From contig DATJPI010000294.1 in the NCBI GenBank assembly GCA_035506495.1, positions 1 to 55,526 on the forward strand: a stretch of DNA of 55,526 nt. Reading direction: 5' to 3'. The position numbers and the translations under genes were made by a program. The notes below the pieces were generated by a model. That model was not told the DNA's origin. It was given only the letters and a program-made list of their open reading frames with translations, and did no database searches. Positions 3,734-19,063 of the stretch are shown piece by piece (position 1 is the stretch's first letter; each line of letters starts with the position of its first letter). The DNA is from Syntrophales bacterium. Lineage in GTDB: Bacteria > Desulfobacterota > Syntrophia > Syntrophales > UBA2192.

Positions 3734-4162
3734 CTAAGTATTAGTTTGGCCGTAAGTACAATAATTGCCGCTAGACCCTGTCCAACAACAGTGGCGATTC
3801 ACGCAAGGGGCGGGACATTGTCCAGACCAGCAATAGGTGGTCACATTCCCAGGGTTGCAACCCTCATTGCAAACATAGCCTGGACCGGCGGAGAGGCCAC
3901 TCCAGCAATCACAGGAAGATGATACGCCGCAAGTACCCGAGCAGCAGGTTCCACTGGGACTGGTGCCGCAGCCCCCGGCGTTGCAACAGCTGCTCCAGGG
4001 GGTGCCGCATCCCCCCGTGCTGCAACACGAGCCAGATGCCCCCGTGCCTGACATGCAGTTTCCGGTCTGCGACCCGTGAGTGGCGCAGGTGTACCCGAGG
4101 GCCGCCTCTCCGCTGCTCAGATGGACAAGCTTTGGTAGTTCATAGGCGAACAATTTTTTCAT
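3734..4162 (-). CDS. Cys-rich RiPP-like precursor paralog A1
   Basis: 142-aa ORF with 21 Cys (4 CC doublets) and a G/S/T-rich composition. Its N-terminus MKKLFAYELPKLVHLSSGE aligns with the leaders of the ORFs at 10168, 10808 and 11321. Confidence 0.7.
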   Translation of the reverse strand: MKKLFAYELPKLVHLSSGEAALGYTCATHGSQTGNCMSGTGASGSCCSTGGCGTPWSSCCNAGGCGTSPSGTCCSGTCGVSSSCDCWSGLSAGPGYVCNEGCNPGNVTTYCWSGQCPAPCVNRHCCWTGSSGNYCTYGQTNT

Positions 4163-4257
4163 GGCAGTCTATACGCTTCTCTCAGGCCGCACATCGGGCA
4201 CTTCCTGCAAAATTGACGATGCGTGTTGCAATCTTGTGCCTCTGATTCTTACGTGTT

Positions 4258-6063
4258 CTATCCTCCCGCGAGCGGCGTCCCGTCTGTCGTCTTTCCCCCC
4301 TTCAAAACCGTCCGGATCAGATTGTTCCTGACCCTCTTCAAGCCCGGCAGCAGCTCCCCTTCCAGACGCCCATACTCCTCCCTGGCGGCACAGACCATCG
4401 TCGCTGTATCGGATCCCGGTCTTCCCACCCGGTCGAAGAATACGGGGTTGTCGCAACCGATCGGCCGTACTTCCCGGTAGTGTACGCCGGCCTCCTGCAG
4501 CCGCACCCGGTCCGAATAATAAAGCTGGAAGGTTGTAGGCAGGGGCCCCTTTTCACTCACCAGCGATAGGACCGCAAGATGCCGGTGAAGATAGAGCGAT
4601 CCCCACGCCTCCGCCGCGGTATAGAGCGTCGTGATGAAAAGAACATTCAGGGCCAGGGCCGTCAGGGCAACATTTCTTAGAATTCGCAGAATGTTCCCAC
4701 TGACGTAGAAAGAATAGACGATCGCGACGAAGGGCAGGATCCAGGCCTGGGGCACATACCGCGCCCACCACGGCTCCGGAAAGACGAAAATGGTGACGGA
4801 CAGGGCAAGCCCTGCGCCAAGGGCAATGCCAAGGTGGGGGCTATGCCGGAGTGCGGCGACGATCATCATTGCTGCAGCCACGAGAAACGCCCCGCCGAAG
4901 AGCGGTCCCCACCCTCCGATACGCGTATCCGGCGAGAAAAAGGGAATCATCTCCCCGGGGCTCACGGAGAAGGGAATCTTCAGCTCGGGCGGGTCTTGCA
5001 GGCTGTTCATGGAGCGGGAAAAGATAGACACCAGAAATTTCTCGACCCGTGTTTTTTTCAGGAATTCGTCATGAACGTGTCCATCCACGGTGTTCGTCGC
5101 ACCCTCGCCGATGACCCGGTGAAAGGGATTCCCCGTCGAAAGGGTGTTCGTCACATAGGGGTTGTAACCGAAGAGGAAGATGCCGATGAAAAGAATCGCA
5201 CCCGCGTGGAGCAGGGCCCGGCGCATCTCTTTCCGATGCCTGATGATGATCATCAGCACCCAAGCCCCGAGCAGGGACAGGGCATACACGAGCCCCGAGT
5301 ACTTGACATTGATGAGCAGGACGGCGGCCAGGCCTGACGTGAAAAAGTGCAGGCGCGACGGGTTTTTCAGCAGGATCAGAAGCTGCGAAGAAAGAATCAG
5401 GAAAAGCGACGAAAGGGCCCCGTCGACCATGAAAGAAAACATCTGGCAGACGGCAACCGGGTTGAGCGCGAGCAGGATCGCGATTGCATTTCGGGTCCTT
5501 CCATCCAGTCGCTCCAGGGGTTCCAAGGCCGTGCGGACCGAAAAAAAGGAAGCCGCCATCAGGAGGAGATTGATCGCCTTACCCGATTCGATGAGTCCCG
5601 CGGCCTTGTAGATCGTGGCCTGGACGATCCACGCCCCTTTGGGGAAATAGCAAATAAAATCGGGAAACGCAGGAGTAGAGAGGACGACGTCCCGCAGTGG
5701 ATTCCAGCCCCCGGCAAGCGCGACGATAGCCTCCTGGTGGTAGTACTGGCCGTCGCAGGAGGTGTCGAAAAAGAAAAGGGAGACTGCGATGGCACAAAGG
5801 AAGGGAATGCCGAAAAGACCCGCGGAAATAGCCAGCGATACGGGCGACGAGCGGCTATGGGCAGCGCGGATCCGATGATATCCGAAGAGGATGCTCGACA
5901 GGATGCAGAGAAAAAGATTGGCCGATGAAATTACAAAACCGAAGAGGTTCTGCAGCAGGGCGAGCACCACGGCGCAAGCCATGAATATCAGGACCTGCTG
6001 GACCAGGATAAAACCGTAATCCGGCTGGGCGATTTCTTTTCGAGACGGCGTATTAATCGGCAT
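4258..6063 (-). CDS. Large polytopic membrane protein, function unknown (GT-C/polymerase-like topology is a guess)
   Basis: 601-aa ORF with many hydrophobic segments followed by a soluble C-terminal tail of about 100 aa. Its start overlaps the stop of the upstream gene by 11 nt, suggesting translational coupling. Confidence 0.6.
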   Translation of the reverse strand: MPINTPSRKEIAQPDYGFILVQQVLIFMACAVVLALLQNLFGFVISSANLFLCILSSILFGYHRIRAAHSRSSPVSLAISAGLFGIPFLCAIAVSLFFFDTSCDGQYYHQEAIVALAGGWNPLRDVVLSTPAFPDFICYFPKGAWIVQATIYKAAGLIESGKAINLLLMAASFFSVRTALEPLERLDGRTRNAIAILLALNPVAVCQMFSFMVDGALSSLFLILSSQLLILLKNPSRLHFFTSGLAAVLLINVKYSGLVYALSLLGAWVLMIIIRHRKEMRRALLHAGAILFIGIFLFGYNPYVTNTLSTGNPFHRVIGEGATNTVDGHVHDEFLKKTRVEKFLVSIFSRSMNSLQDPPELKIPFSVSPGEMIPFFSPDTRIGGWGPLFGGAFLVAAAMMIVAALRHSPHLGIALGAGLALSVTIFVFPEPWWARYVPQAWILPFVAIVYSFYVSGNILRILRNVALTALALNVLFITTLYTAAEAWGSLYLHRHLAVLSLVSEKGPLPTTFQLYYSDRVRLQEAGVHYREVRPIGCDNPVFFDRVGRPGSDTATMVCAAREEYGRLEGELLPGLKRVRNNLIRTVLKGGKTTDGTPLAGG

Positions 6064-7249
6064 GACGGCTGTTCCATCCGGTCCTGCAGAACTGTCTCAG
6101 GGTCCCTTCCCCATATCTGGCTATCAGCGTCACCGGTCGCAGGAGATAGGCGACAGGAAAGAGATAGTCCGGCAGGGGCGCCGGGTTCCAGTCCCCGAAA
6201 AGAAGGTTCATCGCATATTTTCCGAATAGGCCGAGACGGTCTTGCCGGCGCTCCCGGACGTTCCAGTAAAAAACCATCTCCTTCACGAGCGACACCTGAA
6301 TCCGATGGACGCCCAGCAGCCTGCTCTTGATCCATCTCGCCAGCCGATCGACGGAGGGGTCCTCATCGAGTTCTGTCAGAATGAGACCGGGAAGAACGGG
6401 ACCGAAAAGATCTTCCGCCAATCGAAGGCCGAGACAAAGCATTCGGTGGCTGCCGCAGGCCCGGGAGAGCTTCATGATCCTTGTCCAGTCAAGATCCTCC
6501 TTTTGGCGGATGAGCTCTGCAATGTCATGGGCCCAGATCAACCGCCCCCAGAGATCCTTGCACCCATGGACGCAAAGGACTAGGAGCAACTCCTCCGGAG
6601 GCAGTGTGGGAATCCGGAAATCCCTCGTGCGCAGCGCCTGCCCGTTTTCCCACAGGCCGAGGCGCTCCACGGGAAAAGAGAAATACCCGGGAACGATATT
6701 CCATTGAAGCTCGACGGCAATGGTGCCGCTATCGCGCGAAAGCCCAATCTCGCTATTCCATCGCGTGAAGGTCACGGCCTGGGTTCTCGAAAGCGCCTTT
6801 TCGGGCCTGTAACCCATGGCAACCATGAGATCCCGCGCCCGCAGGACATCGCAGCGCCTTATCAGGATATCCAGGTCATTGAAATGGCGAAGCGCCACAT
6901 TGCCGTAGACGAAATCGGCAAGCGCCGGGCCCTTGTAGGGCATCGCCTTCACCCCGCCGGCCTCGAGGCCCTCGAGGATCTTCAGAAGCGCCGATGTCAG
7001 CCGCAGGCACCTGGCCGAATTGACATGGTAGAGCGCCCGGAGATGATCGTAGAGATCGGCAGGAAAGATGCCGGCAAAATGGATCCTTGCATTTCGATAC
7101 AGAAGGGGCGCAAGGCCGTGCTGCAAAGCGAGGCTCGACAGTTCCTGATGGTCGATGCCCGCCGCAAGGATTTCCGCGACCCGTCTTCTCGCGGACGCGC
7201 CCGGGGACGACTGGGAACCGATCAGGAGAAGTTCGATCTCGGGCTTCAT
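6053..7249 (-). CDS. Uncharacterised nucleotidyltransferase family protein (NTP_transf_5-like)
   Basis: 398-aa ORF. The segment MPYKGPALADFVYGNVALRHFNDLDILIRRCDVLRARDLMVAMGYRP matches the pattern I recall for PF14907-type proteins found in RiPP and lasso clusters. It overlaps the upstream GT2 gene by 4 nt. Confidence 0.65.
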   Translation of the reverse strand: MKPEIELLLIGSQSSPGASARRRVAEILAAGIDHQELSSLALQHGLAPLLYRNARIHFAGIFPADLYDHLRALYHVNSARCLRLTSALLKILEGLEAGGVKAMPYKGPALADFVYGNVALRHFNDLDILIRRCDVLRARDLMVAMGYRPEKALSRTQAVTFTRWNSEIGLSRDSGTIAVELQWNIVPGYFSFPVERLGLWENGQALRTRDFRIPTLPPEELLLVLCVHGCKDLWGRLIWAHDIAELIRQKEDLDWTRIMKLSRACGSHRMLCLGLRLAEDLFGPVLPGLILTELDEDPSVDRLARWIKSRLLGVHRIQVSLVKEMVFYWNVRERRQDRLGLFGKYAMNLLFGDWNPAPLPDYLFPVAYLLRPVTLIARYGEGTLRQFCRTGWNSRHAD

Positions 7250-8256
7250 GGACGTGCTCTCTCCAAACGGGTGCAGGTTGCATGCATATCCGTCAAGGGC
7301 TCAGACCGTTTCATCAGATATGGCTGGAAAATGCGGCGATAGATGCGGGGAATCACGTGAGCGGGGTGGATGGCCAGTGCCGCGGCCATCGTCATGACTG
7401 CTCGAAGACGATTGTGGTCCGCGTAGCGCCGGGCTGCGCGCTGATAGAATTCTTCCCCTGAATCTCTCCGATAAGATTCCACTCTCTCATACCAGGAACG
7501 ACTCCTCCGGAAGGCCAGATATTCATTGAAAGAAGGCTCTTTCAGGCCCGATCGCCTGGCATGGATGCACCGGATGGCCCATTCTCCGTAGAGCCGATTC
7601 ACATTTGGCCGGGCGCCGGAAGAGGAGTTCTCGTGAAACCGATCCAGAACGAGGGATTCCCGCATTTTCAACAACAGATGCTTTTGTTCCGCAAGCCTGT
7701 TCCAGAGATCGGTGTCTTCGGCCTGAACGAATATTTCCCGGTATCCGCCGGCATCCAGGACAGTCTTTCTGTGCATCATGACCGTCGAGTGAATGAAGAA
7801 TAGCGTTTCGTTTCGCCTCACCATCTCTACAAGCTCGGCCTCGCTGAAAGGACCCAGGGATTCCATCGGGACAAGCTGCCCGCCCTGCGCGTCGATCCAG
7901 GTGCCCATGGCGCCCAGGACCCTGATCCTCGGGTTGGCCTCAAGAGCGGCAACCTGCAGCTCCAGTTTGCGGGGCAGGAAAATGTCATCGGCGTCGAGGC
8001 GGGCGACCCACTCGCAGGATGCCTCCATGAGGCAGCGGTTTGCTGCGCCGCTGTGTCCCCTGTTTTCCTGTGTGACGACACGGACGCGGGAATCCTCAGC
8101 GGCATAGGCGCGCATGATCGCGGGGGTTGCGTCCGTTGATCCGTCATCGACGAGGATCAGCTCGAAATCGCGATGCGTCTGGGCCAGCACGCTTTCAATG
8201 GCCTCGGCAAGATAGCGCTCGCCGTTATAGACGGGAATGACGACGGAGACTTCCAT
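7246..8256 (-). CDS. Family 2 glycosyltransferase
   Basis: 336-aa ORF with a classic GT2 N-terminus: VSVVIPVYNGERYLAEAIESVLAQTHRDFELILVDDGSTD, then DADD. Confidence 0.85.
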   Translation of the reverse strand: MEVSVVIPVYNGERYLAEAIESVLAQTHRDFELILVDDGSTDATPAIMRAYAAEDSRVRVVTQENRGHSGAANRCLMEASCEWVARLDADDIFLPRKLELQVAALEANPRIRVLGAMGTWIDAQGGQLVPMESLGPFSEAELVEMVRRNETLFFIHSTVMMHRKTVLDAGGYREIFVQAEDTDLWNRLAEQKHLLLKMRESLVLDRFHENSSSGARPNVNRLYGEWAIRCIHARRSGLKEPSFNEYLAFRRSRSWYERVESYRRDSGEEFYQRAARRYADHNRLRAVMTMAAALAIHPAHVIPRIYRRIFQPYLMKRSEPLTDMHATCTRLERARP

Positions 8257-10063
8257 AGGGAATCACGTTTGCCTTTCTTTCCTTGTCATCCGGGATCAAC
8301 TGTCGCGATACGAGCTCCCGGTAGTAACCGCTGGTCCGCAACAGTTCCTCGTGGGTCCCTTCGGCCACGAGGCAGTTCTCGTTGAGAACGAAGATGCGCT
8401 CGGCATCTACAACCGTGGAGAGCCGGTGAGCCACCAGGAAAAGGGTCTTTCCCTGTGTTGCCTCCGGCAGGGCCTGGAAGAAGGACTCTTCCGTCAGACC
8501 GTCGAGGGCCGAGCTGGGCTCGTCCAGGATGAGGATGTCCGGGTCCATGACGAGGGCCCGGGCAATCGAGAGGCGCTGCTTCTGCCCCTCCGAGAGGTTC
8601 ACTCCTCTCTCGCCGATTTCGCTGTCGTACCCATCAGCGAGGCTTTCGATGAAATCGTGGATGCCTGCGATGCGGGCTGCGCGGCTGACTGCCCCGGTGC
8701 TCGCCTCGGGATTACCGTAGCGCAGGTTCTCCATGATCGTCCCGGTCAGCAGGACAGGGCTCTGGGAGACATAGCCGATCCGGCGCCGCAGGGAGCGAAC
8801 CTCGTAGCTCCCGGCAGGTTTGCCGTCATAGAGGATCTCCCCGCCGGTGGGATTGTAGAATCGGAGCAGCAGGCTCAGAATCGTCGTCTTTCCTGCACCG
8901 CTCGGCCCAACGAGGGCTACCCGTTCGCCCGGTTGGACCCGGAAGGAAATGTCCCGGACAACGGGATTTCCCGGATCGTAGGCGAAGGAAACATCTCTGA
9001 ATTCGACCTCCCCCTTGAGTCTCAGCACCTCTTCACCCTTGCCGACGTTTTCTTCTTCTGCCGCCTCGAAAAGCGCCGAGAGACGCTCCAGCGATGCCCG
9101 GGCCGATTGCATGTTCATGTTCATCGATACCAGAGATTGGGCCGGGCCGAAGACGTAGCCGAGGTAGGCCTGGAAGGCGAACATCGTGCCCAGGCTCCAG
9201 TGGCCGGAGATCACCCAGTAGGCCCCGAGGACGAAAACGATAAAACCGGCAAGGCTGGGCACTGCCGTGATGGCCGTGCCCGCCACGGTCCCGACAGCCG
9301 CCTGTTCCATGGAGAGGCCATTCAGGCGTTTCATCGCCTGGATGATCGTCCCGGAGGCACGATCCTCTGTCGCGAAGGCCTTGATGAGGGGGACCGATGC
9401 AAGGGTCTCCTGGAATCTGCTCCAGAGCCGGGCGCTCTCCTCCCGTTGCGCGTGGCTGAACACGTGCATCCGGCGGGAAAAGTAACGCATCGACAGGACC
9501 ATGGGCGGCAGGGTGAGAACGGCGCAGACGGCAAGACGCCACTCCAGGTAGCACAGCAACACGAAGCCGCCTGCGAATTGAAGGACATTCTGCACGATGG
9601 AAACGATGTTGGCCGAAAAGAAGGCGGTCGCGCCCCCGATGTCGCCGACAAGGCGCGACATGAGATACCCCGTCTGGTTCTTATCGAAAAACGCCTTGGG
9701 GAAACGGAGGACCCGGTCGAGCAGATGGCGCTGGATATCGAGGGTGAACTCCTGGTTGTAGCGAGTCATCCAATAGCCCTGCAGCGGGCCGATGATCCGG
9801 TTCAGTGCGGCAAACCCGACCGAGACAATAACCACGAGAATCAGCAGGTCGAGCCGCTTCCCCAGGATTGCGTCATCGATCGCAAAGCGGCCGATGAGGG
9901 GCTGGGGAAAGGCCATGAGCGAGCTCAAGAGGATGAGCCCGCCGGCGACAGCGCCCTTCTTCCAGTGGCGCCAGAAAAAGGGCAGCAGTCTCCGAAGGCT
10001 CTCCCCGAGCGGGGCATAGGCCTGCCCGGCCGCCATCGGGTCCTCGGGAGCCCGCCTATGCAT
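8225..10063 (-). CDS. ABC exporter, fused permease-ATPase, no C39 peptidase domain
   Basis: An N-terminal transmembrane domain is followed by Walker A GPSGAGKTT, signature LSEGQKQR and Walker B ILILDEPSS. The ORF opens at 10300 but would then overlap precursor A2. In-frame ATGs at 10063 and at 10036 (GAGGA 5 nt upstream) are more plausible starts. Confidence 0.85.
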   Translation of the reverse strand: MHRRAPEDPMAAGQAYAPLGESLRRLLPFFWRHWKKGAVAGGLILLSSLMAFPQPLIGRFAIDDAILGKRLDLLILVVIVSVGFAALNRIIGPLQGYWMTRYNQEFTLDIQRHLLDRVLRFPKAFFDKNQTGYLMSRLVGDIGGATAFFSANIVSIVQNVLQFAGGFVLLCYLEWRLAVCAVLTLPPMVLSMRYFSRRMHVFSHAQREESARLWSRFQETLASVPLIKAFATEDRASGTIIQAMKRLNGLSMEQAAVGTVAGTAITAVPSLAGFIVFVLGAYWVISGHWSLGTMFAFQAYLGYVFGPAQSLVSMNMNMQSARASLERLSALFEAAEEENVGKGEEVLRLKGEVEFRDVSFAYDPGNPVVRDISFRVQPGERVALVGPSGAGKTTILSLLLRFYNPTGGEILYDGKPAGSYEVRSLRRRIGYVSQSPVLLTGTIMENLRYGNPEASTGAVSRAARIAGIHDFIESLADGYDSEIGERGVNLSEGQKQRLSIARALVMDPDILILDEPSSALDGLTEESFFQALPEATQGKTLFLVAHRLSTVVDAERIFVLNENCLVAEGTHEELLRTSGYYRELVSRQLIPDDKERKANVIPYGSLRRHSRL

Positions 10064-10136
10064 TCCCTGCTTCAAATATTGGAACCAGCTGTCCACGTCC
10101 GATCCTACTCTCCGAGGGATATCATGGTTGTCCGGC

Positions 10137-10158
10137 CGGGCATCTACTCGTGTGCCCG
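10137..10158 (-). promoter_or_regulatory. Stem-loop just downstream of precursor A2 (possible partial attenuator or processing site)
   Basis: CGGGCA-N10-TGCCCG lies 10 nt after the A2 stop. No U-tract follows it. Confidence 0.25.
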
Positions 10159-10167
10159 ATTCGCCTC

Positions 10168-10584
10168 TCAATAACTCGCGCCGCTGCCGCTCCTGCACAT
10201 TTGAGCTTGGCCGGATCCGGCCCAGCATAACGTACAACTGCCGCCCCGGGCTGTTTCGCCGCAACTGCAAGTCCGGCCAGCGTCGCCGCCCATATCGCAT
10301 TCAGCGCCGTCGTACCCTCCGGCAGCGCACATGTGGTCACCGCCTCCGTAACAGCAAGGGGCGCCGTCGCAGCTGCCCGTGCAGCACGCGATGTTGTAGC
10401 AACTGCCGGTACAACAGTATGCGTAGCCAGGGATTGTGCCTGAGCAACAGTAATACGTCGGCACATTGCCTCCATAGCAACTACCCCATTGTGCATGGGA
10501 GCCGGTGCTGCAATCCGCCCCGCGGGCCGTCTTTTCTCCCGAAAGGCTGATAAGCTTCGGGATCTCGTACTTGAATTTCATCAT
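10168..10584 (-). CDS. Cys-rich RiPP-like precursor paralog A2
   Basis: 138-aa ORF with 19 Cys (4 CC doublets). Leader is MMKFKYEIPKLISLSGEKTARGADCSTGSHA. AAGAAGG lies just upstream of the ATG pair. Confidence 0.75.
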   Translation of the reverse strand: MMKFKYEIPKLISLSGEKTARGADCSTGSHAQWGSCYGGNVPTYYCCSGTIPGYAYCCTGSCYNIACCTGSCDGAPCCYGGGDHMCAAGGYDGAECDMGGDAGRTCSCGETARGGSCTLCWAGSGQAQMCRSGSGASY

Positions 10585-10807: not shown

Positions 10808-11224
10808 CTAAACTGAATTACCGGTCGAGCAAGATCCTGCGTGCGTTCCGTACTGGCAACTTGTGGCATTAGCCCCGTAACTATAGCAAGTACACATGAC
10901 CGGATTACTGCTCCCATACCCGCACGGGTATTGCTGCGGATTCGCGCCGGATCCGCAATTAGCCGAATCGCAGTACCCCGAGCAGCAAACTGCACCCGTG
11001 CAGGCCCCGCAGTAGCAGGCGTCGGGACAGGCCCCCGTGCAGCATGTCAGGACAGTACCGCCGGTCCCGGTGCTGCAACAGGTTGTCGCAACATTGCCAT
11101 TTTTACAAGTCGTGCTGGCATGCGACCCCGTCGCGCAAGCCGCCCCGTGTGCCGTCTGCTCACCCGAGAGAATAATGAATTGGGGGGGGGCGTACTTGAA
11201 TTTCAATGTGTCTCCAGTCAGCAT
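10808..11224 (-). CDS. Cys-rich RiPP-like precursor paralog A3
   Basis: ORF with 19 Cys (3 CC doublets). Leader is KFKYAPPQFIILSGEQTAHGAACATGSHA. By alignment with A2 and A4, the likely true start is the TTG at 11206, which is preceded by GGAGA. Confidence 0.75.
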   Translation of the reverse strand: MLTGDTLKFKYAPPQFIILSGEQTAHGAACATGSHASTTCKNGNVATTCCSTGTGGTVLTCCTGACPDACYCGACTGAVCCSGYCDSANCGSGANPQQYPCGYGSSNPVMCTCYSYGANATSCQYGTHAGSCSTGNSV

Positions 11225-11740: not shown

Positions 11741-11763
11741 CTTCAGCTCCGTTGTACTGCCGC

Positions 11764-12756
11764 TCACCGTACCGCTGCCTCCATCTCTTCCCAGAAGCGC
11801 CCATCGATGCTCGCACGCAGCCGGAAGGCCGGAATCGACCGGGCAAGCCCGCAGGCGTTGTCAAATATCATGGTTTTCGATGTTCGTCTTTCCCCGGGGG
11901 CAAGGTCCCTCCAGAAGGACAGGCAGATCTGCGATGCCGCTTCGATCACACTTGCAGCCGCCTCTCCTTTCCCGATTGGTGCCATTTCGTCCTTTGTCCC
12001 CTGCTCCAGGAAGAAGATCGCCTCCAACGGCAGTGAACACTGGACGTCCCAAATCTGTTCTGACCGCCTCCACATATAATCGCTCCAGGTCGGAAACGGG
12101 TGGGCCCGATAGTTCCCTTTTTCGTCGACCACGACGAGGGACAGGTCGTCGCTGAGGGCTCTCCATGGCCCAGGGATCCTCCTGCAGCAGGTGGATTTCC
12201 CCGTTCCACCGGGGGCTGAAATGAGAAAGCCCCTACCCTCACGCTCGATCAGGGCGGCATGAATCGGAAGCCCCCCCTCTTGCATGGCACGGAAATAGAT
12301 CGGGCAGAGGGCCTGCCCCATCTGCAGGATTTCCAGCTCATGGCTGCGGTCTCCCGCCATCTCGCAGACGACGCCGGGCAAGCCGGGGTGTACCCAGAAA
12401 CGGAGGGAAGGCAGCTCATAAGACTTCCAGCCATCGGAAGGGAGGTCCCTCAAAACGCCCTCGCCATCCCGGGACGGAATCCACTGCCGCAAGTCCATGA
12501 GCCTTTCCTCCCGGACGAACAGGAGTTTCGGGTTCCCGTTGGGCTTGCACGGTTTGAGCCGCATGATCGTAGCGAGTTTCCCCGCCCACGGACCGGCGTC
12601 CCCCGTTGCCACGATTTCCCAGCTCTGGCCGTTGCCCAGTCTCAGCAGGTATCGCACTTCTCCGTCGGTCTTCGGGGAGCGGCTGCTCTCGGGCCCGTAC
12701 CTTTCGGAAATGATCACGCTAGCTCCCGGCACTTTGCTCCCCCCGGTTCCTGACAT
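11764..12756 (-). CDS. HPr-kinase-related P-loop protein (ScmC-like / HprK-related kinase-like)
   Basis: 330-aa ORF. LPIHAALIEREGRGFLISAPGGTGKSTCCRRI matches the HAA...G.G.L..G.SG.GKST pattern of HprK-like kinases seen in RiPP clusters. Confidence 0.6.
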   Translation of the reverse strand: MSGTGGSKVPGASVIISERYGPESSRSPKTDGEVRYLLRLGNGQSWEIVATGDAGPWAGKLATIMRLKPCKPNGNPKLLFVREERLMDLRQWIPSRDGEGVLRDLPSDGWKSYELPSLRFWVHPGLPGVVCEMAGDRSHELEILQMGQALCPIYFRAMQEGGLPIHAALIEREGRGFLISAPGGTGKSTCCRRIPGPWRALSDDLSLVVVDEKGNYRAHPFPTWSDYMWRRSEQIWDVQCSLPLEAIFFLEQGTKDEMAPIGKGEAAASVIEAASQICLSFWRDLAPGERRTSKTMIFDNACGLARSIPAFRLRASIDGRFWEEMEAAVR

Positions 12757-13418
12757 GCTTTACCGACGGTGTCCGTCAACAATCTCTCATCCACGATCAG
12801 ACGATAAGGCCGCCGGATCACCCATCCTTCGCCCTCCATGCATCGCCCGATCACCCGCCGTCCCATGAGGATCTGCATATCCGTCCCGTCCGGCCGCCCG
12901 AACGTGACAACCGTCGGCGTCATCGATGCAGGCAGCAGCCGCCCCAGCAAACCCTTCCGTGACAGCCAACGGTAAAGGGGATGGAGCAGATTTGATATGA
13001 CGACGTCAAGGCGCTCCAACTTTAGAACGAGACTCGCCTGGAGCCGCCCCGCCATCCCGCGGTGGACGGCATGCTTTTTCCCATCCCGTTCGAAGGATAC
13101 GACGCGCCCCATGATCTCTTCCCCTGCGAGGACCCAGGGATCGGGGCGGTCGCTCGCGTCGCCCTTCGTATGAATCCTGCCCGCTGTCTTATCGATCACC
13201 CGGTGGACCACCAGGCGCTCTTCGCCCGACGGTCTGAAAACGATGACGTCGCCCCGGCGGATATCCCGCACAGGACAGGAAATGAGTTTCAAGCAATCAC
13301 CCGGCTGAAAGAAGGGAGTCATGGAGGAGCCGTGATAAAAGACCCCCCCCTGCCGATTCTCCCGAGGAAAAGGCGACGGATGATCACGTTCGTCGTTGCC
13401 GATCTGAAGTCCCGTCAT
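12714..13418 (-). CDS. S24/S26-family (signal peptidase I-like) serine peptidase, candidate leader peptidase
   Basis: 234-aa ORF with the motifs GSSMTPFFQPGD (Ser nucleophile box), RRGDVIVF and VVHRVIDK. The His at the usual Lys position resembles SipW/Sec11-type enzymes. Confidence 0.6.
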   Translation of the reverse strand: MTGLQIGNDERDHPSPFPRENRQGGVFYHGSSMTPFFQPGDCLKLISCPVRDIRRGDVIVFRPSGEERLVVHRVIDKTAGRIHTKGDASDRPDPWVLAGEEIMGRVVSFERDGKKHAVHRGMAGRLQASLVLKLERLDVVISNLLHPLYRWLSRKGLLGRLLPASMTPTVVTFGRPDGTDMQILMGRRVIGRCMEGEGWVIRRPYRLIVDERLLTDTVGKACQEPGGAKCRELA

Positions 13419-13476: not shown

Positions 13477-14541
13477 CTATTCGGCAGAGCATGCCCCCGT
13501 TGCGACTCGTTGTTCCCGGATCGCGCGCAATTCTCTCCGGGGATTCTCCCCATCGCACATTCCCGGCAGGGTATGGAAACCCAGGCAGCCGCCGCTGCAT
13601 CTCCTTTCCACTTTTTCGACGCACGTTACACAACACGCCTGGCAGGAAAGGCCCTGCGCGCGGACCTGTTCCTGGAAATACGTCTGTAGCCGAAAAAGAT
13701 TCCCGAATGAGAGAAGATCCGTTTTGAATTTCGACAGTGGAAAACAGGGCCAGGCCTCGAGTCCAGGGCCGATATCCACCATGAAGTGATCGCAGGTTGA
13801 GCGGAATTTTCTCGAATCCGCGGCCGTAACGGGCATCGCACAGCGGGGAATCGAATGACAGTCGATTCCATAAGAGACTCCGTTCTGCAGGAGGACCCGA
13901 AACCAGACATCGAGGAGATCCATCAGCTCCGCGTAGCGATTCAACGGGATGTACCGGGAAACTCCGTCCGCCGGAACGGCGATCTGAAACTGGATCAGTG
14001 GACGGAGCGAATACTTCATGATCAGCATGAGTCGATCGACAATCGGGTAACAGTCCCCGCGGTCGATGTCCGACTCGGTAATGGTGTAGCCCAGCATGAC
14101 CCGATGCCCGACCCGGCGAAGAAAGTCTTCCACCCGCCGTCTCTTGGGGACCGGATAATGGAAATGGGATGTGCTGTTCAGGCCAAACGTCAGGTCTGGG
14201 AATTTCATGGCAGCGATTTGATCGAGCAGCGCCTTCGAGCATATTCCCGTCGTGCTGACATGGACCGAAAAGGACCTGGACCGAAGCAGTTCCAAAATGT
14301 CCATAAACCGAGTGTGCAGAAGGGGTTCCCCCCCCAGGAGAATCATCCGGCTCAAACCGGAGGACTCGTAGAATTTGACAACGGATTCAAAGTCCGCAAA
14401 ATGCATCTCGGCGATCCCCCGGGAATGGTACTCTGCCATCTTCGCCCGGGCGAAACACCACGGACAGGAATTCACACACTTCGCAGTCAGCATGACTGTC
14501 GGCATGACGATGAGCATCCTCCGTCTGTTCTGCACGAACAC
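13477..14541 (-). CDS. Radical SAM protein with atypical SPASM/twitch-like C-terminus
   Basis: 354-aa ORF with CVNSCPWC (CX3CX2C) near the N-terminus. The C-terminal Cys cluster CDHF..GLEAWPC ... CQACCVTCVEKVERRCSGGC has non-canonical spacing. Confidence 0.75.
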   Translation of the reverse strand: MFVQNRRRMLIVMPTVMLTAKCVNSCPWCFARAKMAEYHSRGIAEMHFADFESVVKFYESSGLSRMILLGGEPLLHTRFMDILELLRSRSFSVHVSTTGICSKALLDQIAAMKFPDLTFGLNSTSHFHYPVPKRRRVEDFLRRVGHRVMLGYTITESDIDRGDCYPIVDRLMLIMKYSLRPLIQFQIAVPADGVSRYIPLNRYAELMDLLDVWFRVLLQNGVSYGIDCHSIPRCAMPVTAADSRKFRSTCDHFMVDIGPGLEAWPCFPLSKFKTDLLSFGNLFRLQTYFQEQVRAQGLSCQACCVTCVEKVERRCSGGCLGFHTLPGMCDGENPRRELRAIREQRVATGACSAE

Positions 14542-14592: not shown

Positions 14593-15759
14593 TCACACCG
14601 CAGCCATCCCTGCGACTGCGGTGCCCCCGACACCCGCAGCGGCCCGTTCCCGCAACCCCGACTTGATCCGCGACTCGGGGAAGAGGCCCTTCGCTCTAGC
14701 CTCCTCGCAAAACCAGTATCCCGCCCAGAGTCTCCCGTCCCGATAATAGTTCTGGGCAACGCAGCTCCCCAGGCACATGCCCTTCATAATGCAGTCCGCG
14801 CAGATCCCCTCGAGACGGCCCGGAAGACCCTCGCGCAGTTCCTTCAGGACAGGCGAGTTCAGCCAGACATCGCTCAGCGCATCCTTTGCAGCGTGTCCGA
14901 AGACGAGTTCAGGGACCGTTGTACCTATCCCGCAGAGCGCATAGGTGCCGTCGGAGAGTACCCCGATGATCCCGAAAATATTGCAGAGCCCGCAGGAACC
15001 CTTGTCGCCGAAGATATTCCCCATGGACCGGAAGGCCATGGGATGGCTCGAGTAGAGAGGGATGACCACCTGTTTCGACAGGGTGTTTTCGACCCAACGG
15101 CCCAGCTCTACCAGCTCTTCGATAGGCAGGGTCTCCCCGGCCTCGTGCATCTTCTCGCCCCGGGCCGTGGGCTGGACGAAGTTGAACTTCACCGACGCGG
15201 CGCCGATCGATTCCGCCAGCCGCACCAGGGCCTCCATCTGGCCGACATTTCGCCGCATGATGGACATGATGACCTGCGGCCGGATGCCTGCGTCGACGAG
15301 GTTGCGGATTCCCTGCAGAGTCGCCTCGAAGGAGCCTTCCACGCCCCGGACCCACTCGTGGGTCTGCGCATCAGCGCCGTCAAGGCTGACGGCGACGAAC
15401 GGCTGCCCGCATGCGGCAATGCGCCGCGCCAGATCGGCCGTGCACAGAACACCGTTCGTTTCGACGGTCAGGCGGAGCTTCTCCTCACGTACGATATCGA
15501 CGATCTCAGCGATCTGCGGGTGAAGGAGCGGCTCGCCGCCCGTCAGCTTCACACATTCAAGCCCCAGGGGCTTGGCCTGGGAAAGAATGGAGCGGAAGAG
15601 ATGGACGTCCAGTGCCGGGTATTTCTTCCCCCCTCCCTGGAACTTCGGCTCGATCCAGCAGTGGCGACAGCGAAGATTGCACCCTTCCGTCAAGTAAAAA
15701 TAGATAGCCCCCAGCTGATAGGTGCGCTCACGGGGTCTTTCCGATGTTCCGTTCGGCAC
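14593..15759 (-). CDS. Radical SAM/SPASM domain protein (PqqE-like peptide maturase)
   Basis: Has CNLRCRHC (CX3CX2C) and a canonical SPASM motif: CNIFGIIGVLSDGTYALC plus CADCIMKGMCLGSC (CX2CX5CX3C). The track ORF opens at 15873 and overlaps the upstream gene by 100 nt. The GTG at 15759 follows the upstream TGA and a GAAAGGAGAG Shine-Dalgarno sequence, so I chose it. Confidence 0.85.
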   Translation of the reverse strand: MPNGTSERPRERTYQLGAIYFYLTEGCNLRCRHCWIEPKFQGGGKKYPALDVHLFRSILSQAKPLGLECVKLTGGEPLLHPQIAEIVDIVREEKLRLTVETNGVLCTADLARRIAACGQPFVAVSLDGADAQTHEWVRGVEGSFEATLQGIRNLVDAGIRPQVIMSIMRRNVGQMEALVRLAESIGAASVKFNFVQPTARGEKMHEAGETLPIEELVELGRWVENTLSKQVVIPLYSSHPMAFRSMGNIFGDKGSCGLCNIFGIIGVLSDGTYALCGIGTTVPELVFGHAAKDALSDVWLNSPVLKELREGLPGRLEGICADCIMKGMCLGSCVAQNYYRDGRLWAGYWFCEEARAKGLFPESRIKSGLRERAAAGVGGTAVAGMAAV

Positions 15760-15773
15760 GACACTCTCCTTTC

Positions 15774-17456
15774 TCAGGGTTCTCTTTCTTCTCTTTTTTG
15801 GGACATCCTTCCGATGGCCGCGTCGACGTCGACACGGAACAGGTAAAAATTGCTGTTGCAACTGGTCTGGCAACTCGATGCCATGGGAAATGTCCGGTAA
15901 CTTTCCTTGTCATAGGGATTCCCCCACCGGGCGACAAGGGCCGGACCGGCGCTCCAAAGATAAAGGTTGCTGACGTTATGTTCCTGCAGGGTCTGAAGGA
16001 TCCTTTCGAAGTCGACTTCCTGCGGGGCAACCAGATAAGCGCGCTCGAAGAAAAGCGGACCTGCGTGCTCCATCAGCGGGGCGCCTGTGAATACGACGAC
16101 ATCCCCCTTTGCCGAGTTCTGTTCCAGGAAGGCGACGCGCCTGGCGTTGTAGTCGGTGTATTTCATGAAGGGATCCTTTACCCACTCGTATCCACCGGCG
16201 ATGGAGACGGCCACCGCAAAAACCAAAAGGCCCGAAACCGCCGGAGCTGCAAATATCCTCCGGCTCTCGATGCCCATAACGACGATAGCGACAGGAATGA
16301 CCGGCAGATAGAAGAGGCGGACATAATCCGACTCGTTTTTCAGCACAGTAGCGACCTGGGTGAGACAGAGCAGAATAGCGGCTGAGAGGATCAGGCCGAG
16401 AAGAACTTTCTCTTTCTTGATGGCATCGAAAAAACTCGCAGGCAGGCCCCAGAAAGCGAACAGCAGTGTTGGGAACAGTAACAGGAAGGGGATCAATGAA
16501 AAACGGGCCGACGTGACGAGGACAACGGCAGACAGAAGCAACAGGGAAACAAACCACGCTCCCGCCATCGGAAAGTTCGGCAATGACCCCTTTTGTGCTT
16601 CGCACAAAAGCGCCGCCGAGAGGACAAAAGCCCCCAGAAAGATCAGAACTCGGATCGGGGAAAGGGCGAGCCAGGGTGCGAGAGATTCAAGGTACGGCCC
16701 GGGAAAGGCGCCGTAGAGCATGGCCTCCGAGACCATCCAGAGCACCGCAGCCGCGGCGGCCCCAGCCGCGAACAGACCCGCTTCACGCGATTTTTTCCCG
16801 GCTGCGAGCAAAGAGGTGCCGGCGATTGTCCAGGCCGCGGCCATGAAGAGAAACGCCGGGCATAAGAAGAGAGTCAGGCCCATTGAGAACGATGATCCGA
16901 AGAGGATCATGGGCGCCTGTTTGATACAGACATATCGAACGATCCCGTACAGGGCCAACGCCTCCAGGAAGAGAGCCGCCGTGACCTCGGAGAACCCGAA
17001 GATATTCAGGGCAACGGGAGATCCCAGAAAGGCAAGCAGAAGGAGATACTGCAGCACACTCCTTTCCATGACGAGACCGAGGGCCATTTTGAGCATGATC
17101 GCCGTAAGAAAAAAGAACGCCAGCGGAAGAAGGTGCACCGCCCGGTCACCGAACAGCGGGTAGAAGAGGCTCGTCAAAAAGGGAAACAGCGGCGGTGTGA
17201 TCGCCCGGAGCTCGCCCCTCTTGGATTCGAAGTAACCCGGTTCTTTCGTCAGATCGTCGGCCGTGAATCCCATCTGCTGCGCCGGATAAGGAATGGAGAG
17301 GGAGCCATGCAGGGCGAAGTTCTTCATCTGGACGAACTTGGCGCCTTCCTCGTTCGAGTAGAGCCCCAGCGACGGCAAGTGAAAGAACAACGCTGCGAGC
17401 GCCACGAACAGGGTAATGAAGAAGATTGTCTCGTATTTTGAGAGCCGGTTCAGCAT
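15774..17456 (-). CDS. Polytopic membrane protein, ArnT/PMT-like (GT-C fold) glycosyltransferase candidate
   Basis: 560-aa ORF with more than 10 hydrophobic segments, an acidic first loop (YSNEEGAKF) and a soluble C-terminal domain. The family assignment is by overall architecture only. Confidence 0.5.
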   Translation of the reverse strand: MLNRLSKYETIFFITLFVALAALFFHLPSLGLYSNEEGAKFVQMKNFALHGSLSIPYPAQQMGFTADDLTKEPGYFESKRGELRAITPPLFPFLTSLFYPLFGDRAVHLLPLAFFFLTAIMLKMALGLVMERSVLQYLLLLAFLGSPVALNIFGFSEVTAALFLEALALYGIVRYVCIKQAPMILFGSSFSMGLTLFLCPAFLFMAAAWTIAGTSLLAAGKKSREAGLFAAGAAAAAVLWMVSEAMLYGAFPGPYLESLAPWLALSPIRVLIFLGAFVLSAALLCEAQKGSLPNFPMAGAWFVSLLLLSAVVLVTSARFSLIPFLLLFPTLLFAFWGLPASFFDAIKKEKVLLGLILSAAILLCLTQVATVLKNESDYVRLFYLPVIPVAIVVMGIESRRIFAAPAVSGLLVFAVAVSIAGGYEWVKDPFMKYTDYNARRVAFLEQNSAKGDVVVFTGAPLMEHAGPLFFERAYLVAPQEVDFERILQTLQEHNVSNLYLWSAGPALVARWGNPYDKESYRTFPMASSCQTSCNSNFYLFRVDVDAAIGRMSQKREEREP

Positions 17457-18592
17457 GCTGCCTCCTGTCTCGCCTGACCGATCAGGAGCGACCGATCCGG
17501 CAGTTTTCCGCCGTCGGACAGGAAATTCCGGAGGCAGGAATCCGGGGCGGGATGGTTCACCTCACCCGTTATTGTGTAGGCAAGCCCCGCGCAGCTTCCC
17601 GTGCAATAGGGGATGTAGTCACACCCCTGGCAGAAGGCAAACGTGCTCAAGGCAATGAGATTGCGCTCTCGCAGGGTCTTCAAGGCGATGTGGTTTTGCC
17701 AGATATCACGAAGGCTGTCTCGGTTGACCCGGCCCAGCTCGATATGGGAGAGCATGGTGCAGGGTGTGATGGCCCCGTCAGACCGTACGGCCAACTGGCT
17801 TGAATAGCAGCCGCAGCCTGTGAGGCTGCCCCGATTGGGCAAAGACGGTACCCCTGCCTCTCTTGCCGCCGCCATCTCCAGCCAGCCCCGCGCCTCGGCC
17901 AAGGGTCCCGCCATGGCGCTGATCCGGTCACCATACCTCCCTGTCAGCTTAAGAAGGGTTTCCATCGCGAGCATGCGATCTTCCGTTGTGAGCTGCACCA
18001 GCTCGGCGTTCTTGCGGCAAAGCCCGAGAAGCCCCGCAGAATTGGTACCGAAGCTCGGCAGGCCCAGCTCCTCAAGAAGAAAATGAGCTATGCTTTCCAG
18101 GTCGTGAACATTTTTGCGGTGAATGGTTACGCGAATGGCGATGTTCACACCATGCCGCTGAAGTTTCCGGATACCCTCGACAGCCTTCCGGAAGCTGCCG
18201 TTTCCGCGGAATGCATCGTGGGTGGTCGGGACGGATCCATCGATAGAGACCTGCACATATTCGCACCGCCTGGTGGAAGCCAGATACGATGCCATCTCGT
18301 CGGTGATCAGCGTGCCGTTGCTGAGGATGGAAAAGCGCATGCGGTTCCTGACAATGCCCTCCAGGATCTCCCGGAGATCTTCCCGGATGAAGGGCTCGCC
18401 GCCCGCCAGGGTCAGGTTCATGACGGCGCAGCGATTGAGCTCCTCGAAGAATGGCAGCCACCCTTCCAGGGGCAGGTCCTCGCCCGCATCCTCGGAACTC
18501 TCGAAGTGGTAACAGTAGCGGCACCGCAGATTGCAGCGGTTGGTAATAGCGATATCCAGCTTTTTCGGAGTTTTCATCAGTGACATGGACAT
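17450..18592 (-). CDS. Radical SAM/SPASM domain protein (PqqE-like peptide maturase)
   Basis: Has CNLRCRYC and a canonical SPASM motif: CYSSQLAVRSDGAITPC plus CQGCDYIPYCTGSC. The track ORF opens at 18742 inside the PqqD gene. ATGs at 18592 and 18586 lie just after the PqqD TAG and an AAGGTG Shine-Dalgarno sequence. Confidence 0.88.
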   Translation of the reverse strand: MSMSLMKTPKKLDIAITNRCNLRCRYCYHFESSEDAGEDLPLEGWLPFFEELNRCAVMNLTLAGGEPFIREDLREILEGIVRNRMRFSILSNGTLITDEMASYLASTRRCEYVQVSIDGSVPTTHDAFRGNGSFRKAVEGIRKLQRHGVNIAIRVTIHRKNVHDLESIAHFLLEELGLPSFGTNSAGLLGLCRKNAELVQLTTEDRMLAMETLLKLTGRYGDRISAMAGPLAEARGWLEMAAAREAGVPSLPNRGSLTGCGCYSSQLAVRSDGAITPCTMLSHIELGRVNRDSLRDIWQNHIALKTLRERNLIALSTFAFCQGCDYIPYCTGSCAGLAYTITGEVNHPAPDSCLRNFLSDGGKLPDRSLLIGQARQEAAC

Positions 18593-18599
18593 CACCTTG

Positions 18600-18968
18600 C
18601 TAAATCCGGTTCTCCTGCCCGCCTGTTGCCTCATAACCCACAAGCCCCTGCGTCTCGAGACCGCGGATGAATTCGCCGACGTGCTGTTGCGCATCCTCGG
18701 GAACATCCGTCGCCTCATTTCGCAGCTCTCGGACAATGTCATCCGGGCTGTGATTCCCGTCGAGAAGCTTCCAGATGAAAACCCCCGTCGGGTTCAGGCC
18801 GAAGGCATTGCCCGTGTCGGGATCGAACAGAATGGCCCAGTCATCGAATTCCTCGCGGAGAACGATGAGTGGATTGGCATACGCGTTTCTTTGTTCCACG
18901 GCTGTTTCCTTTCTTAAAGGGTGGGATCCCGTCGCTCGGCACTCCTCACTGTCAGGGCCGCCCCCCAT
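18600..18968 (-). CDS. PqqD-family protein (RiPP recognition element)
   Basis: 122-aa ORF. The C-terminal part WAILFDPDTGNAFGLNPTGVFIWKLLDGNHSPDDIVRELR fits the PqqD family. It lies immediately upstream of a radical SAM/SPASM gene. The exact start is uncertain. Confidence 0.75.
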   Translation of the reverse strand: MGGGPDSEECRATGSHPLRKETAVEQRNAYANPLIVLREEFDDWAILFDPDTGNAFGLNPTGVFIWKLLDGNHSPDDIVRELRNEATDVPEDAQQHVGEFIRGLETQGLVGYEATGGQENRI

Positions 18969-19019
18969 CCGGCTTGGGTCAGTCCCGATCGACAGACAAA
19001 TTCGTATTCGCTAAGAGTT

Positions 19020-19036
19020 TTGCAAGAAGCGTACCC
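19020..19036 (-). promoter_or_regulatory. Candidate sigma-54 (-24/-12) promoter for the RiPP-like cluster
   Basis: The minus strand reads GGGTAC-GCTTC-TTGCA against the consensus TGGCAC-N5-TTGC. GG and GC have correct spacing. It lies about 50 nt upstream of the PqqD ATG. Confidence 0.3.
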
Positions 19037-19063
19037 GGCGAAAATGGCTTGTATTTTCGCCGG
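19035..19063. promoter_or_regulatory. Perfect 11-bp inverted repeat in the divergent intergenic region
   Basis: CCGGCGAAAAT-GGCTTGT-ATTTTCGCCGG, with no flanking U-tract. It abuts the -24 element of the candidate sigma-54 promoter and could be an operator or an RNA hairpin. Confidence 0.35.

Follow-up and report, generated by a model that had tools for sequence, protein, structure and literature searches.

A 55,526-nt stretch of DNA from a metagenome-assembled Syntrophales bacterium (contig DATJPI010000294.1; hereafter the window) carries on its minus strand, between positions 3734 and 18968, a co-directional run of 15 genes spanning approximately 15 kb, which belongs to the SynChlorMet cassettes and probably encodes a pathway for a peptide that is made by the ribosome and modified after translation (RiPP). 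In this pathway, the recognition protein ScmD would lead Cys-rich precursor peptides through cross-linking by radical S-adenosylmethionine (rSAM) enzymes, phosphorylation, leader removal, and export. The SynChlorMet cassette comprises the families TIGR04248 to TIGR04252 (ScmD, ScmC, ScmE, ScmF, and ScmA); as a family already known and annotated, it does not constitute a novel type of system. In the literature that we searched, neither its precursor class nor its kinship to the machinery of linear polyphosphorylated peptides (LPPs) and lasso peptides is described.

The 15 cluster proteins were all scanned against NCBIfam, and 10 of them (all but ScmD, ScmE, ScmF, the ABC exporter, and the family 2 glycosyltransferase, GT2) against Pfam. 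ScmD scores 126 bits against TIGR04248 (cut-off 100), ScmC 291.1 bits against TIGR04249 (cut-off 125), ScmE 588.7 bits against TIGR04250 (cut-off 400; model positions 1-358 of 358), and ScmF 599.4 bits against TIGR04251 (cut-off 400; model positions 2-353 of 353). Since these four proteins exceed the curated NCBIfam cut-offs, we assign the 15-gene cluster to the SynChlorMet cassette, a membership that the first-pass annotation of this DNA had raised as a possibility; the NCBI record of the contig also names the identical protein at 11764-12756 'SynChlorMet cassette protein ScmC'. The co-directional arrangement, the gene order, and the gene identities given in that annotation were likewise borne out by the open reading frame (ORF) map, NCBIfam, and Pfam, with 15 ORFs in place of the seventeen announced (its own list also holds 15).

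ScmE has a CxxxCxxC motif and the SPASM motif C-x2-C-x5-C-x3-C, and the SPASM motif of ScmF reads CADCIMKGMCLGSC. The third rSAM enzyme (rSAM3) ends in an atypical C-x2-C-x7-C-x3-C tail. It scores 46 bits against the Radical_SAM model and matches no specific NCBIfam family; none of its approximately 70 close relatives is named, and all of the contexts examined are Scm-like.

ScmC matches the HprK-related kinase A model TIGR04352 (E=1.9e-8), and its profile retrieved the HprK/P structure 1jb1 from the PDB (E=0.011). Its AlphaFold2 (AF2) model (pLDDT 80.9) finds phosphoenolpyruvate carboxykinase (PEPCK) structures as best Foldseek matches, at low TM scores of 0.4-0.5; the predicted structure fits the PEPCK/HprK fold class and nothing finer. 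Lasso peptide kinases, which phosphorylate the C-terminal Ser of their precursor, need a His-Lys-Asp-Asp set (PMC9266682) that ScmC keeps as H166, K187, D203, and D204; among ScmC homologues the first three are invariant and the last is nearly so. ScmC has at least 925 homologues in all.

The peptidase scores 59.3 bits against TIGR02228 (cut-off 51.85) and has no N-terminal membrane anchor; the Ser of its GxSMxP motif, the His of HR, the GD, and the Asp are invariant in 61 of 61 cassette homologues. The best NCBIfam models for the ABC exporter are the MsbA-related TIGR02204 (389 bits) and TIGR02203 (380 bits), neither of which reaches its cut-off; models of bacteriocin and NHLP exporters come next. 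The GT2 protein matches EpsE, TuaG, and other GT2 models with E-values down to 1e-37, all under the cut-offs. The NTP_transf_5 protein scores 188.8 bits against PF14907, and a PDB sequence search with it returned nothing significant. Of the two large membrane proteins, the 560-aa protein reaches 88.5 bits against NF047440 (LA_3751/LA_3752 putative glycosyltransferase; cut-off 200), with no Pfam match and nothing significant in a PDB sequence search, and the 601-aa protein has no match in Pfam, NCBIfam, or a PDB sequence search.

Four short genes, A1 to A4, encode proteins of 132-142 aa with 19-21 Cys each. No other among the 237 stop-to-stop ORFs of 100 aa or more in the window is as rich in Cys (11.7-14.6% in these four; median 2.4%), in agreement with the first-pass annotation, which had singled them out by their Cys content. 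All four share the N-terminus K-F-K-Y-E-x-P-K-L-x-x-L-S-G-E-x-T-A-x-G-A-x-C-x-T-G-S-H-A, and a hidden Markov model (HMM) of this leader finds no further leader-bearing ORF (at least 40 aa) in the window. Pairwise dN/dS ratios among the copies range from 0.19 to 0.43 (0.19-0.21 for A2 against A3 and A4; 0.32-0.43 for A1 against the other three; 0.37 for A3 against A4, falling to 0.18 over the leader and the first core repeats), and third codon positions are the least conserved. Judged from these substitution patterns, A1-A4 are real coding genes under purifying selection.

When only residues 1-50 are compared, A4 and A3 match the ScmA model TIGR04252 at E=3.9e-4 (20.6 bits) and E=0.0099 (16.1 bits), respectively, under the cut-off of 35 bits; typical precursors of other cassettes also stay under it (E=5e-4 to 0.02, 15-20 bits). 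Weak though these matches are, they are specific, and we therefore regard A1-A4 as divergent ScmA homologues; in place of a score above the cut-off, the leader HMM and synteny back this homology. The earlier statement that the SynChlorMet precursor had not been identified is outdated, since NCBIfam holds TIGR04252 as 'SCM_precur_ScmA', and the Cys-rich ORFs are not the missing substrates that they had been proposed to be. A1-A4 are almost certainly the peptides that the cluster modifies, trims, and exports.

Related loci and recognition protein-precursor fusions

A search with the ScmC profile yielded 80 loci from species-representative genomes (81 with the window), which were annotated with the window proteins and scanned with the leader HMM, built from the window and the first homologues and iterated once. 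Leader-bearing ORFs occur in 62 of the 80 other loci (63 of 81 including the window; 92 ORFs in total), mostly between scmF and scmC. The first-pass annotation had named the absence of the Cys-rich ORFs from all homologous cassettes as evidence against its reading; ORFs with the same leader are present there. An exhaustive profile search of 1.84 billion representative proteins gave 109 precursor relatives at E<=1e-3, few of which are matched along their whole length.

Every host found is an anaerobe; among them are Desulfobacterota, Chlorobiaceae, Omnitrophota, Saganbacteria, Aminicenantes, Brocadiaceae, Methanocella, and Methanotrichaceae. The modal gene order is ScmD>ScmE>ScmF>precursor>ScmC>S26 peptidase>NTP_transf_5>ABC. 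The peptidase is present in 63 of the 81 loci (mostly just downstream of scmC), NTP_transf_5 in 37, and ABC in 38; these counts are minima, because many contigs end within the locus. Homologues of the 560-aa membrane protein were found in L065, L069, L077, and L084, and of the GT2 protein in L071 and L077 only; none of the 80 loci has a homologue of the 601-aa membrane protein.

The 92 predicted precursors show the leader consensus K-K-x-K-[Y/W]-E-K-P-x-L-[IV]-x-L. The aromatic residue is Tyr in 76 and Trp in 16, the Pro is present in 92 of 92 with an anchoring pattern that allowed P or L at this position, and the Leu in 76 of 92. The first Cys lies 17-20 residues past the aromatic residue, with a Gly at -2 of this Cys in 46 of 92. 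The core is built of a 10-residue repeat, C-x-x-G-[TSN]-[SG]-A-x-x-x (Gly in 138 and Ala in 89 of 145 units), and the commonest Cys spacing in the cores is 10. In A1-A4, three canonical repeats are followed by CC pairs and Cys spacings of 4-5 residues; in the long-core group, the 'G-S' following the first Cys does not vary.

In Chlorobiaceae (loci L033, L039, and L067), the precursor ORF of L033 and L039, which have the full cassette, lies outside the interval from scmF to scmC, on the other strand or some kilobases away; such displacement might explain why the original family description reported no precursor. At about position 10001 of L070, a Methanocellaceae metagenome-assembled genome, ScmE, ScmF, and ScmC are each split into three or four consecutive ORF fragments, which look like long-read frameshift errors or a decaying cassette.

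A profile of A1-A4 retrieved mainly proteins of 185-246 aa with an N-terminal ScmD/PqqD domain, a linker, the leader, and a Cys-rich core. These ScmD::leader::core fusions come from independent metagenomes, and make up 10 of 12 proteins in the first profile search and approximately 15 of the 109 representatives (Table 1). A3 is 58% identical to the tail of one of them (P0122), and near-identical over the last ~60 residues; A4 is 70% identical to a stand-alone homologue (P0121), and the window ScmD shares 61% identity with the PqqD portion of fusion P0125. An AF2 model of one fusion gives pLDDT values of 61-87 for the PqqD domain, 76 for the leader block, and 21-29 for the core, with a disordered linker. 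For fusion P0123, the best superpositions of the modelled PqqD domain are with the leader-bound lasso B1 proteins 5v1v and 6jx3 (target TM 0.79-0.81); the predicted fold is closest to TbiB1 and TfuB1. Such ScmD-precursor fusions are unusual. Two RRE-Finder papers mention neither HprK nor the genera of the founding organisms, and the passages considered here report no recognition protein that is joined to the precursor it serves.

The fusion-type clusters L082 and L083 contain a single rSAM enzyme, a protein like the 560-aa membrane protein, and ScmC; ScmE and ScmF are absent. The rSAM3-type enzyme of fusion-type clusters sits between two precursor genes. The sole rSAM enzyme of L082 is 46% identical to rSAM3, and its 540-aa protein is 32% identical to the 560-aa membrane protein. 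These two genes recur in clusters with long Cys-dense precursors (L031, L077, L082, and L084), and the window looks like a merger of a canonical ScmDEF cassette with this module of long Cys-dense cores. No variant seen among more than 85 loci is more elaborate. Its variant gene order recurs, up to scmC, on the contig that carries P0134, and L084 is syntenic with the window and has two stand-alone precursors with 16-17 Cys; a 151-aa gene of L084, considered as a further precursor, is a fragment of ScmF.

A minimal subtype lies directly downstream of carA/carB in L001, L002, L004, L082, and L083, and consists of a ScmD::precursor fusion, ScmC, the S26 peptidase, and a small lipoprotein-like gene. 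The Saganbacteria locus L085 (4908-18957) contains ScmC, a lasso-B2-type Transglut_core3 protease, PqqD, and four consecutive rSAM genes, together with two rSAM::ScmC fusions (649 and 661 aa), a second PqqD, and a YcaO protein.

Kinship with characterised systems

Compared with other SynChlorMet cassettes, the window shares the ScmA-type leader and has the peptidase, NTP_transf_5, and ABC genes. Its precursors differ from the typical ones, whose median is 72 aa and 5 Cys (range 2-14), in being about twice as long, with approximately four times as many Cys, and in their CC pairs and 4-5-residue spacings. The window also adds the third rSAM family, the 560-aa and 601-aa membrane proteins, and GT2.

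For the non-rSAM half of the enzyme set, the closest experimentally tested system is that of the LPPs of Bacillota (LppA/B/K/S/N/D; Nat Commun 2026;17:6633, PMC13381572), for which we draw on parts of the published report and its Supplementary Data 2. The domain table lists PqqD, NTP_transf_5, TIGR02228 (LppS), and TIGR02203 (PMC13381572). The LppS-type peptidase has the accession WP_029196374.1. The window holds all five families of the LPP core, namely a discrete PqqD protein, an HprK-like kinase, a TIGR02228-type peptidase, NTP_transf_5, and an MsbA-like exporter, and its proteins match the same models, that of the exporter being the nearest sibling. In LPP biosynthesis, the kinase polyphosphorylates Ser3 of the core, which is the only modification demonstrated; the signal peptidase I (SpI)-like peptidase depends on the recognition protein for leader removal, which takes place 15 residues past the Tyr, and cuts unphosphorylated precursor poorly, and the NTP_transf_5 protein had no detectable effect in a heterologous host (PMC13381572). 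LPP precursors have 35-200 aa, occur in one to three copies, and lie in glycosyltransferase-rich surroundings (PMC13381572).

The two systems also differ. The window leader, Y-x-x-P-x-L-[IV]-x-L, resembles the beginning of the LPP leader YxxPxVLxHQxIxFETxxS (PMC13381572), whereas the HQxIxFETxxS part is absent from the window precursors. LPPs are described without rSAM enzymes and as restricted to Bacillota (PMC13381572), whereas three rSAM genes lie inside the window cluster, two or three are integral to SynChlorMet, and the SynChlorMet hosts are anaerobic Desulfobacterota, archaea, and members of other phyla. SynChlorMet cores have a Cys repeat, which the consulted parts of the LPP report do not mention (PMC13381572). 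The first-pass annotation knew of no RiPP class that combines precursors of roughly 140 aa and 19-21 Cys with this enzyme set; for the non-rSAM half, which is the LPP core, that calls for qualification, whereas the size and Cys density of the precursors, the third rSAM enzyme, GT2, and the two membrane proteins are still unusual.

With the phosphorylated lasso peptides paeninodin and pseudomycoidin, the cluster shares a recognition protein of predicted B1-type fold, an HprK-like kinase, and a nucleotidyltransferase gene; in pseudomycoidin, the annotated nucleotidyltransferase PsmN adds a hexose to phosphoserine (PMC9266682). The leader motif [Y/W]xxPx[L/V/I/F/A] is found in 92 of 92 predicted precursors. 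Unlike lasso peptides, these precursors lack a conserved C-terminal Ser and have far longer, Cys-rich cores. A lasso peptide cluster was rejected, as the NCBIfam (15 proteins) and Pfam (10 proteins) scans gave no match to an Asn-synthetase-like cyclase or a B2 protease.

Ranthipeptide and sactipeptide pathways (freyrasin/PapB, SCIFF, subtilosin/AlbA) likewise combine rSAM/SPASM enzymes with a PqqD-type element and Cys-containing cores, and the repeated Cys motif of the SynChlorMet cores recalls the six CxxxD units of freyrasin. ScmE and ScmF have weaker matches to the PapB, StsB, and AlbA models; these models and that of SkfB stay far below the cut-offs. Unlike those pathways, the cluster has a kinase, a SpI-like peptidase, and NTP_transf_5, and its recognition protein is discrete and of lasso type.

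Cluster layout and surroundings

The genes are transcribed in the order scmD-scmE-560-aa membrane-scmF-rSAM3-peptidase-scmC-A4-A3-A2-ABC-GT2-NTP_transf_5-601-aa membrane-A1 (Table 1). Most intergenic gaps are short, or stop and start codons overlap; the wider ones flank the Cys-rich ORFs, as had been noted before, and measure, with the probable starts, 23 nt before A4, approximately 96-114 nt before A3, 223 nt before A2, and 95 nt before A1. Shine-Dalgarno sequences lie 6 nt upstream of the A4 ATG at 11740 (GGAG), 5 nt upstream of the A3 TTG at 11206 (GGAG), and directly upstream of the A2 ATG (AAGAAGG). With these starts for A3 and A4, the N-terminus of all four products reads M-(M/K)-K-x-x-Y.

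Table 1 Features of the window cluster and recognition protein-precursor fusions in related loci
Feature	Position	Strand	Basis
scmD, discrete PqqD-type RiPP recognition element	18600..18968	-	TIGR04248
scmE, radical SAM/SPASM enzyme	17450..18742 (probable start 18577-18592)	-	TIGR04250
560-aa polytopic membrane protein, possibly GT-C-like glycosyltransferase, accessory	15774..17456	-	weak NF047440
scmF, radical SAM/SPASM enzyme	14593..15873	-	TIGR04251
rSAM3, third radical SAM enzyme, unnamed family, accessory	13477..14541	-	generic PF04055 alone
Soluble archaeal/endoplasmic-reticulum-type signal-peptidase-I-like (S26) protease, predicted leader peptidase	12714..13418	-	TIGR02228
scmC, HprK-like P-loop protein, predicted peptide kinase	11764..12756	-	TIGR04249
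Precursor A4, 139 aa, 19 Cys	11321..11767 (probable start ATG 11740)	-	leader HMM E=1e-17
Precursor A3, 132 aa, 19 Cys	10808..11224 (probable start TTG 11206)	-	leader HMM E=8.5e-16
Precursor A2, 138 aa, 19 Cys	10168..10584	-	leader HMM E=2.8e-15
MsbA-like ABC exporter without peptidase domain	8225..10300 (probable start M80 at 10063)	-	TIGR02204/TIGR02203 best
GT2 glycosyltransferase, accessory	7246..8256	-	GT2 models below cut-offs
NTP_transf_5 protein (LppN/PsmN-type 'nucleotidyltransferase')	6053..7249	-	PF14907
601-aa polytopic membrane protein, accessory	4258..6063	-	ORF; no family match
Precursor A1, 142 aa, 21 Cys, most divergent copy, 3' end of cluster	3734..4162	-	leader HMM E=2.5e-13
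G+C-rich hairpin between cluster and convergent MFS-type transporter gene	3575..3603	.	11-bp stem, 9 G-C
Divergent intergenic region, scmD to FixC-like flavoprotein gene, 173 nt	18969..19141	.	ORF map
ScmD::precursor fusions	P0122, P0123, P0125-P0132; L081 5496-6176, 6618-7265; L082 8001-8693, 9930-10793		

On the left, the first-pass annotation had placed a bidirectional terminator at 3575-3609. The hairpin is there, at 3575-3603; termination in both directions is plausible, with the terminator scan scoring the plus strand only and a weak T-run on the minus strand. The divergent spacer on the right has the extent described before, and the scan found no sigma-70-like site within it; promoter-like sites are no commoner than in shuffled sequences. 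The arrangement of the genes is what points to a promoter at 18969-19141. The whole window has no Rfam match at the gathering threshold.

A conserved element of ~26 nt, GGACCGGAT(A/G)GCAGGCT(A/G)AC(T/G)ATACA, lies on the minus strand at 10685-10710 and 11234-11259, upstream of A2 and A3. It was presumably duplicated together with the precursor genes, and may act as an internal promoter or as a site of processing or regulation.

The plus-strand neighbours beyond scmD are a FixC-like gene (19142-20428) and a FixX-like ferredoxin gene (20425-20700). The related locus L084 (2860-7653) adjoins the same block of FixC, Fer4_ETF_QO, acyl-CoA dehydrogenase, and electron transfer flavoprotein (ETF) genes, which suggests a conserved chromosomal placement in related Syntrophales and need not imply a functional link. 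ORFs of 429-645 aa lie antisense to the ABC exporter (8237-10174, plus strand), scmF (14557-15846, plus strand), and the transporter (2278-3591, minus strand); these are typical shadow ORFs of G+C-rich DNA and give no sign of being genes.

Proposed pathway and its alternatives

In the pathway that we favour, ScmD would bind the leader K-x-K-Y-E-x-P-x-L-x-x-L-S-G...G of A1-A4, in the way that lasso and LPP recognition proteins bind [Y/W]xxPx[L/V/I], and would hand the ~110-residue cores, rich in Cys, Gly, Ser, and Thr, to ScmE, ScmF, and here also rSAM3. These three enzymes would most likely form many intramolecular cross-links, for which our best guess is Cys-to-carbon thioethers of the sactipeptide or ranthipeptide type, the most economical choice for SPASM enzymes working on Cys-periodic cores in strict anaerobes. 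ScmC would phosphorylate a Ser near the start of the core, with the 'G-S' that follows the first Cys as candidate site; extension or glycosylation of the product may fall to NTP_transf_5, GT2, and the GT-C-like membrane protein. The soluble signal-peptidase-like protease would take off the leader at a conserved Gly that stands ~16 residues beyond the Tyr, and the MsbA-like ABC transporter would export the product. We infer the chemistry of each step, the sites of phosphorylation and cleavage, the order of the steps, and the biological role of the product by analogy, starting from what is observed directly, namely the family membership, the coding status and homology of the precursors, the synteny, the ScmD fusions, and the gene set shared with LPPs.

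Several points weigh against this pathway. SynChlorMet is a family defined by comparative genomics only, and our literature search found no paper on it. Within NCBIfam, ScmE and ScmF are about equally distant from heme/NirJ-type, pyrroloquinoline quinone (PQQ), mycofactocin, and sactipeptide/ranthipeptide maturases, so that the type of cross-link cannot be read from the sequence, and the AF2 model of the fusion offers no fold for the core. The predicted phosphorylation and cleavage sites are extrapolations, because the LPP leader motif beyond YxxPx[L/V] is absent. The gene order of the window departs from the modal cassette, with the peptidase before scmC and the four precursor copies after it. 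The link between accessory genes and Cys-dense cores (maximum Cys count per locus 7, 14, 14, and 21 where rSAM3 or the 560-aa protein is present; for 59 other loci the median is 4 and the highest value 11; Mann-Whitney p 7e-4) comes from few loci, which are not phylogenetically independent.

No rSAM gene was detected within 10 kb of ScmC in L001 and L002, which have ScmC, the peptidase, and fusion precursors, and this suggests that ScmC and the peptidase may act without rSAM chemistry. Taken further, the product of the window cluster could be of LPP type, that is, linear, phosphorylated, and possibly glycosylated, with Cys that form disulfides or bind metals after export and rSAM enzymes that play a minor part (epimerisation or methylation) or act on another substrate. 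The complete five-gene LPP core in the window and the fact that phosphorylation is the sole modification demonstrated in the LPP work would agree with such a product. We nevertheless find it unlikely, as ScmE and ScmF (50 and 55 of the 81 loci) directly adjoin ScmD and the precursor in most loci, rSAM and ScmC are fused in L085, an rSAM3 enzyme lies between two precursor genes in fusion-type clusters, and the fixed 10-residue Cys period is the one constant of the cores. Moreover, extracellular disulfides are unlikely in anaerobic hosts. Very unlikely, in our judgement, are lanthionine-like links, in which ScmC would phosphorylate each C-x-x-G-S/T repeat, with subsequent elimination and Cys addition, leaving further tailoring to the rSAM enzymes. 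Each repeat does have one Cys and a Ser/Thr at +4 or +5, the kinase is universal in the cassette (ScmC was, however, the query that found all 80 loci; the window has one), and kinase-dependent dehydration has a precedent in class III/IV lanthipeptides, to judge from the parts of the source used here (PMC10604976). Yet neither a lyase nor a LanC-like cyclase domain was found in the cluster by the NCBIfam (15 proteins) and Pfam (10 proteins) scans; the characterised kinases LppK, PadeK, and PsmK, as far as the sources used here describe them, stack phosphates on one Ser rather than modifying many sites; and two or three rSAM enzymes per cluster would be left without a role.

The PqqD protein beside PqqE-like enzymes, with PQQ and mycofactocin families among the weaker ScmE/ScmF matches, also recalls the synthesis of a peptide-derived redox cofactor or metal-binding factor that is not exported as a peptide; the FixC/FixX-type electron-transfer genes adjoining the cluster here and in L084, and the very Cys-rich cores, would be in line with this. 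A pathway of the PQQ/mycofactocin type was rejected on account of the variable multi-copy cores and the exporter, and we regard a cofactor as highly improbable: each locus has several divergent precursor paralogues whose cores, of 47-175 aa, are hypervariable and lack the conserved C-terminal residue or residue pair of cofactor precursors, the ABC exporter and leader peptidase are dedicated, and the leader and recognition protein are of lasso/LPP type. Hardly tenable is the notion that the Cys-rich ORFs are unexpressed chance frames in G+C-rich DNA. Full-length A1-A4 match nothing in Pfam and NCBIfam even at E=10, and their N-termini stay below the ScmA cut-off, which counts against the favoured pathway as well. 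Nevertheless, the comparative data effectively refute chance frames: the dN/dS ratios and the weak conservation of third positions, the Shine-Dalgarno sequences at the right distance for A2, A3, and A4, homologues at a fixed position in 62 other loci, the same sequence in frame with ScmD in the fusions, and the 109 representatives of the exhaustive profile search. The SynChlorMet-type RiPP pathway with rSAM cross-linking accounts better than any of these alternatives for the way in which the genes of the rSAM enzymes, the recognition protein, and the precursor are kept side by side.

The analysis gives SynChlorMet testable content, in the form of a precursor family with a defined leader, a 10-residue Cys repeat, and a conserved eight-gene order. 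It also links the family to the phosphorylation and leader-removal machinery of LPPs and lasso peptides, the LPP part of which was demonstrated in 2026 and, according to the parts of that report used here, thought to occur in Bacillota only. The ScmD::precursor and rSAM::ScmC fusions support the functional links between these proteins, and make convenient models for the transfer of a substrate from a recognition protein to its enzymes. As an extreme member of the family, the window cluster is a good entry to new rSAM cross-linking chemistry on unusually large substrates.

It is possible, if rather doubtful, that SynChlorMet, with the window cluster as its most elaborate form, represents a new RiPP class of Cys-repeat mini-proteins of 50-110 residues, which would be multiply cross-linked by two or three rSAM enzymes, then phosphorylated and possibly glycosylated by tailoring enzymes of LPP/lasso type, trimmed by a cytoplasmic signal-peptidase-like protease, and exported, with the fused recognition protein of one sub-lineage acting in cis and being consumed with its substrate. 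If so, the LPP machinery would be an ancient module spread across anaerobic bacteria and archaea, and not a speciality of Bacillota. As the hosts are uncultured or slow-growing anaerobes, including syntrophs, methanogens, anammox bacteria, and candidate phyla, the ecological role of such products could be of interest.

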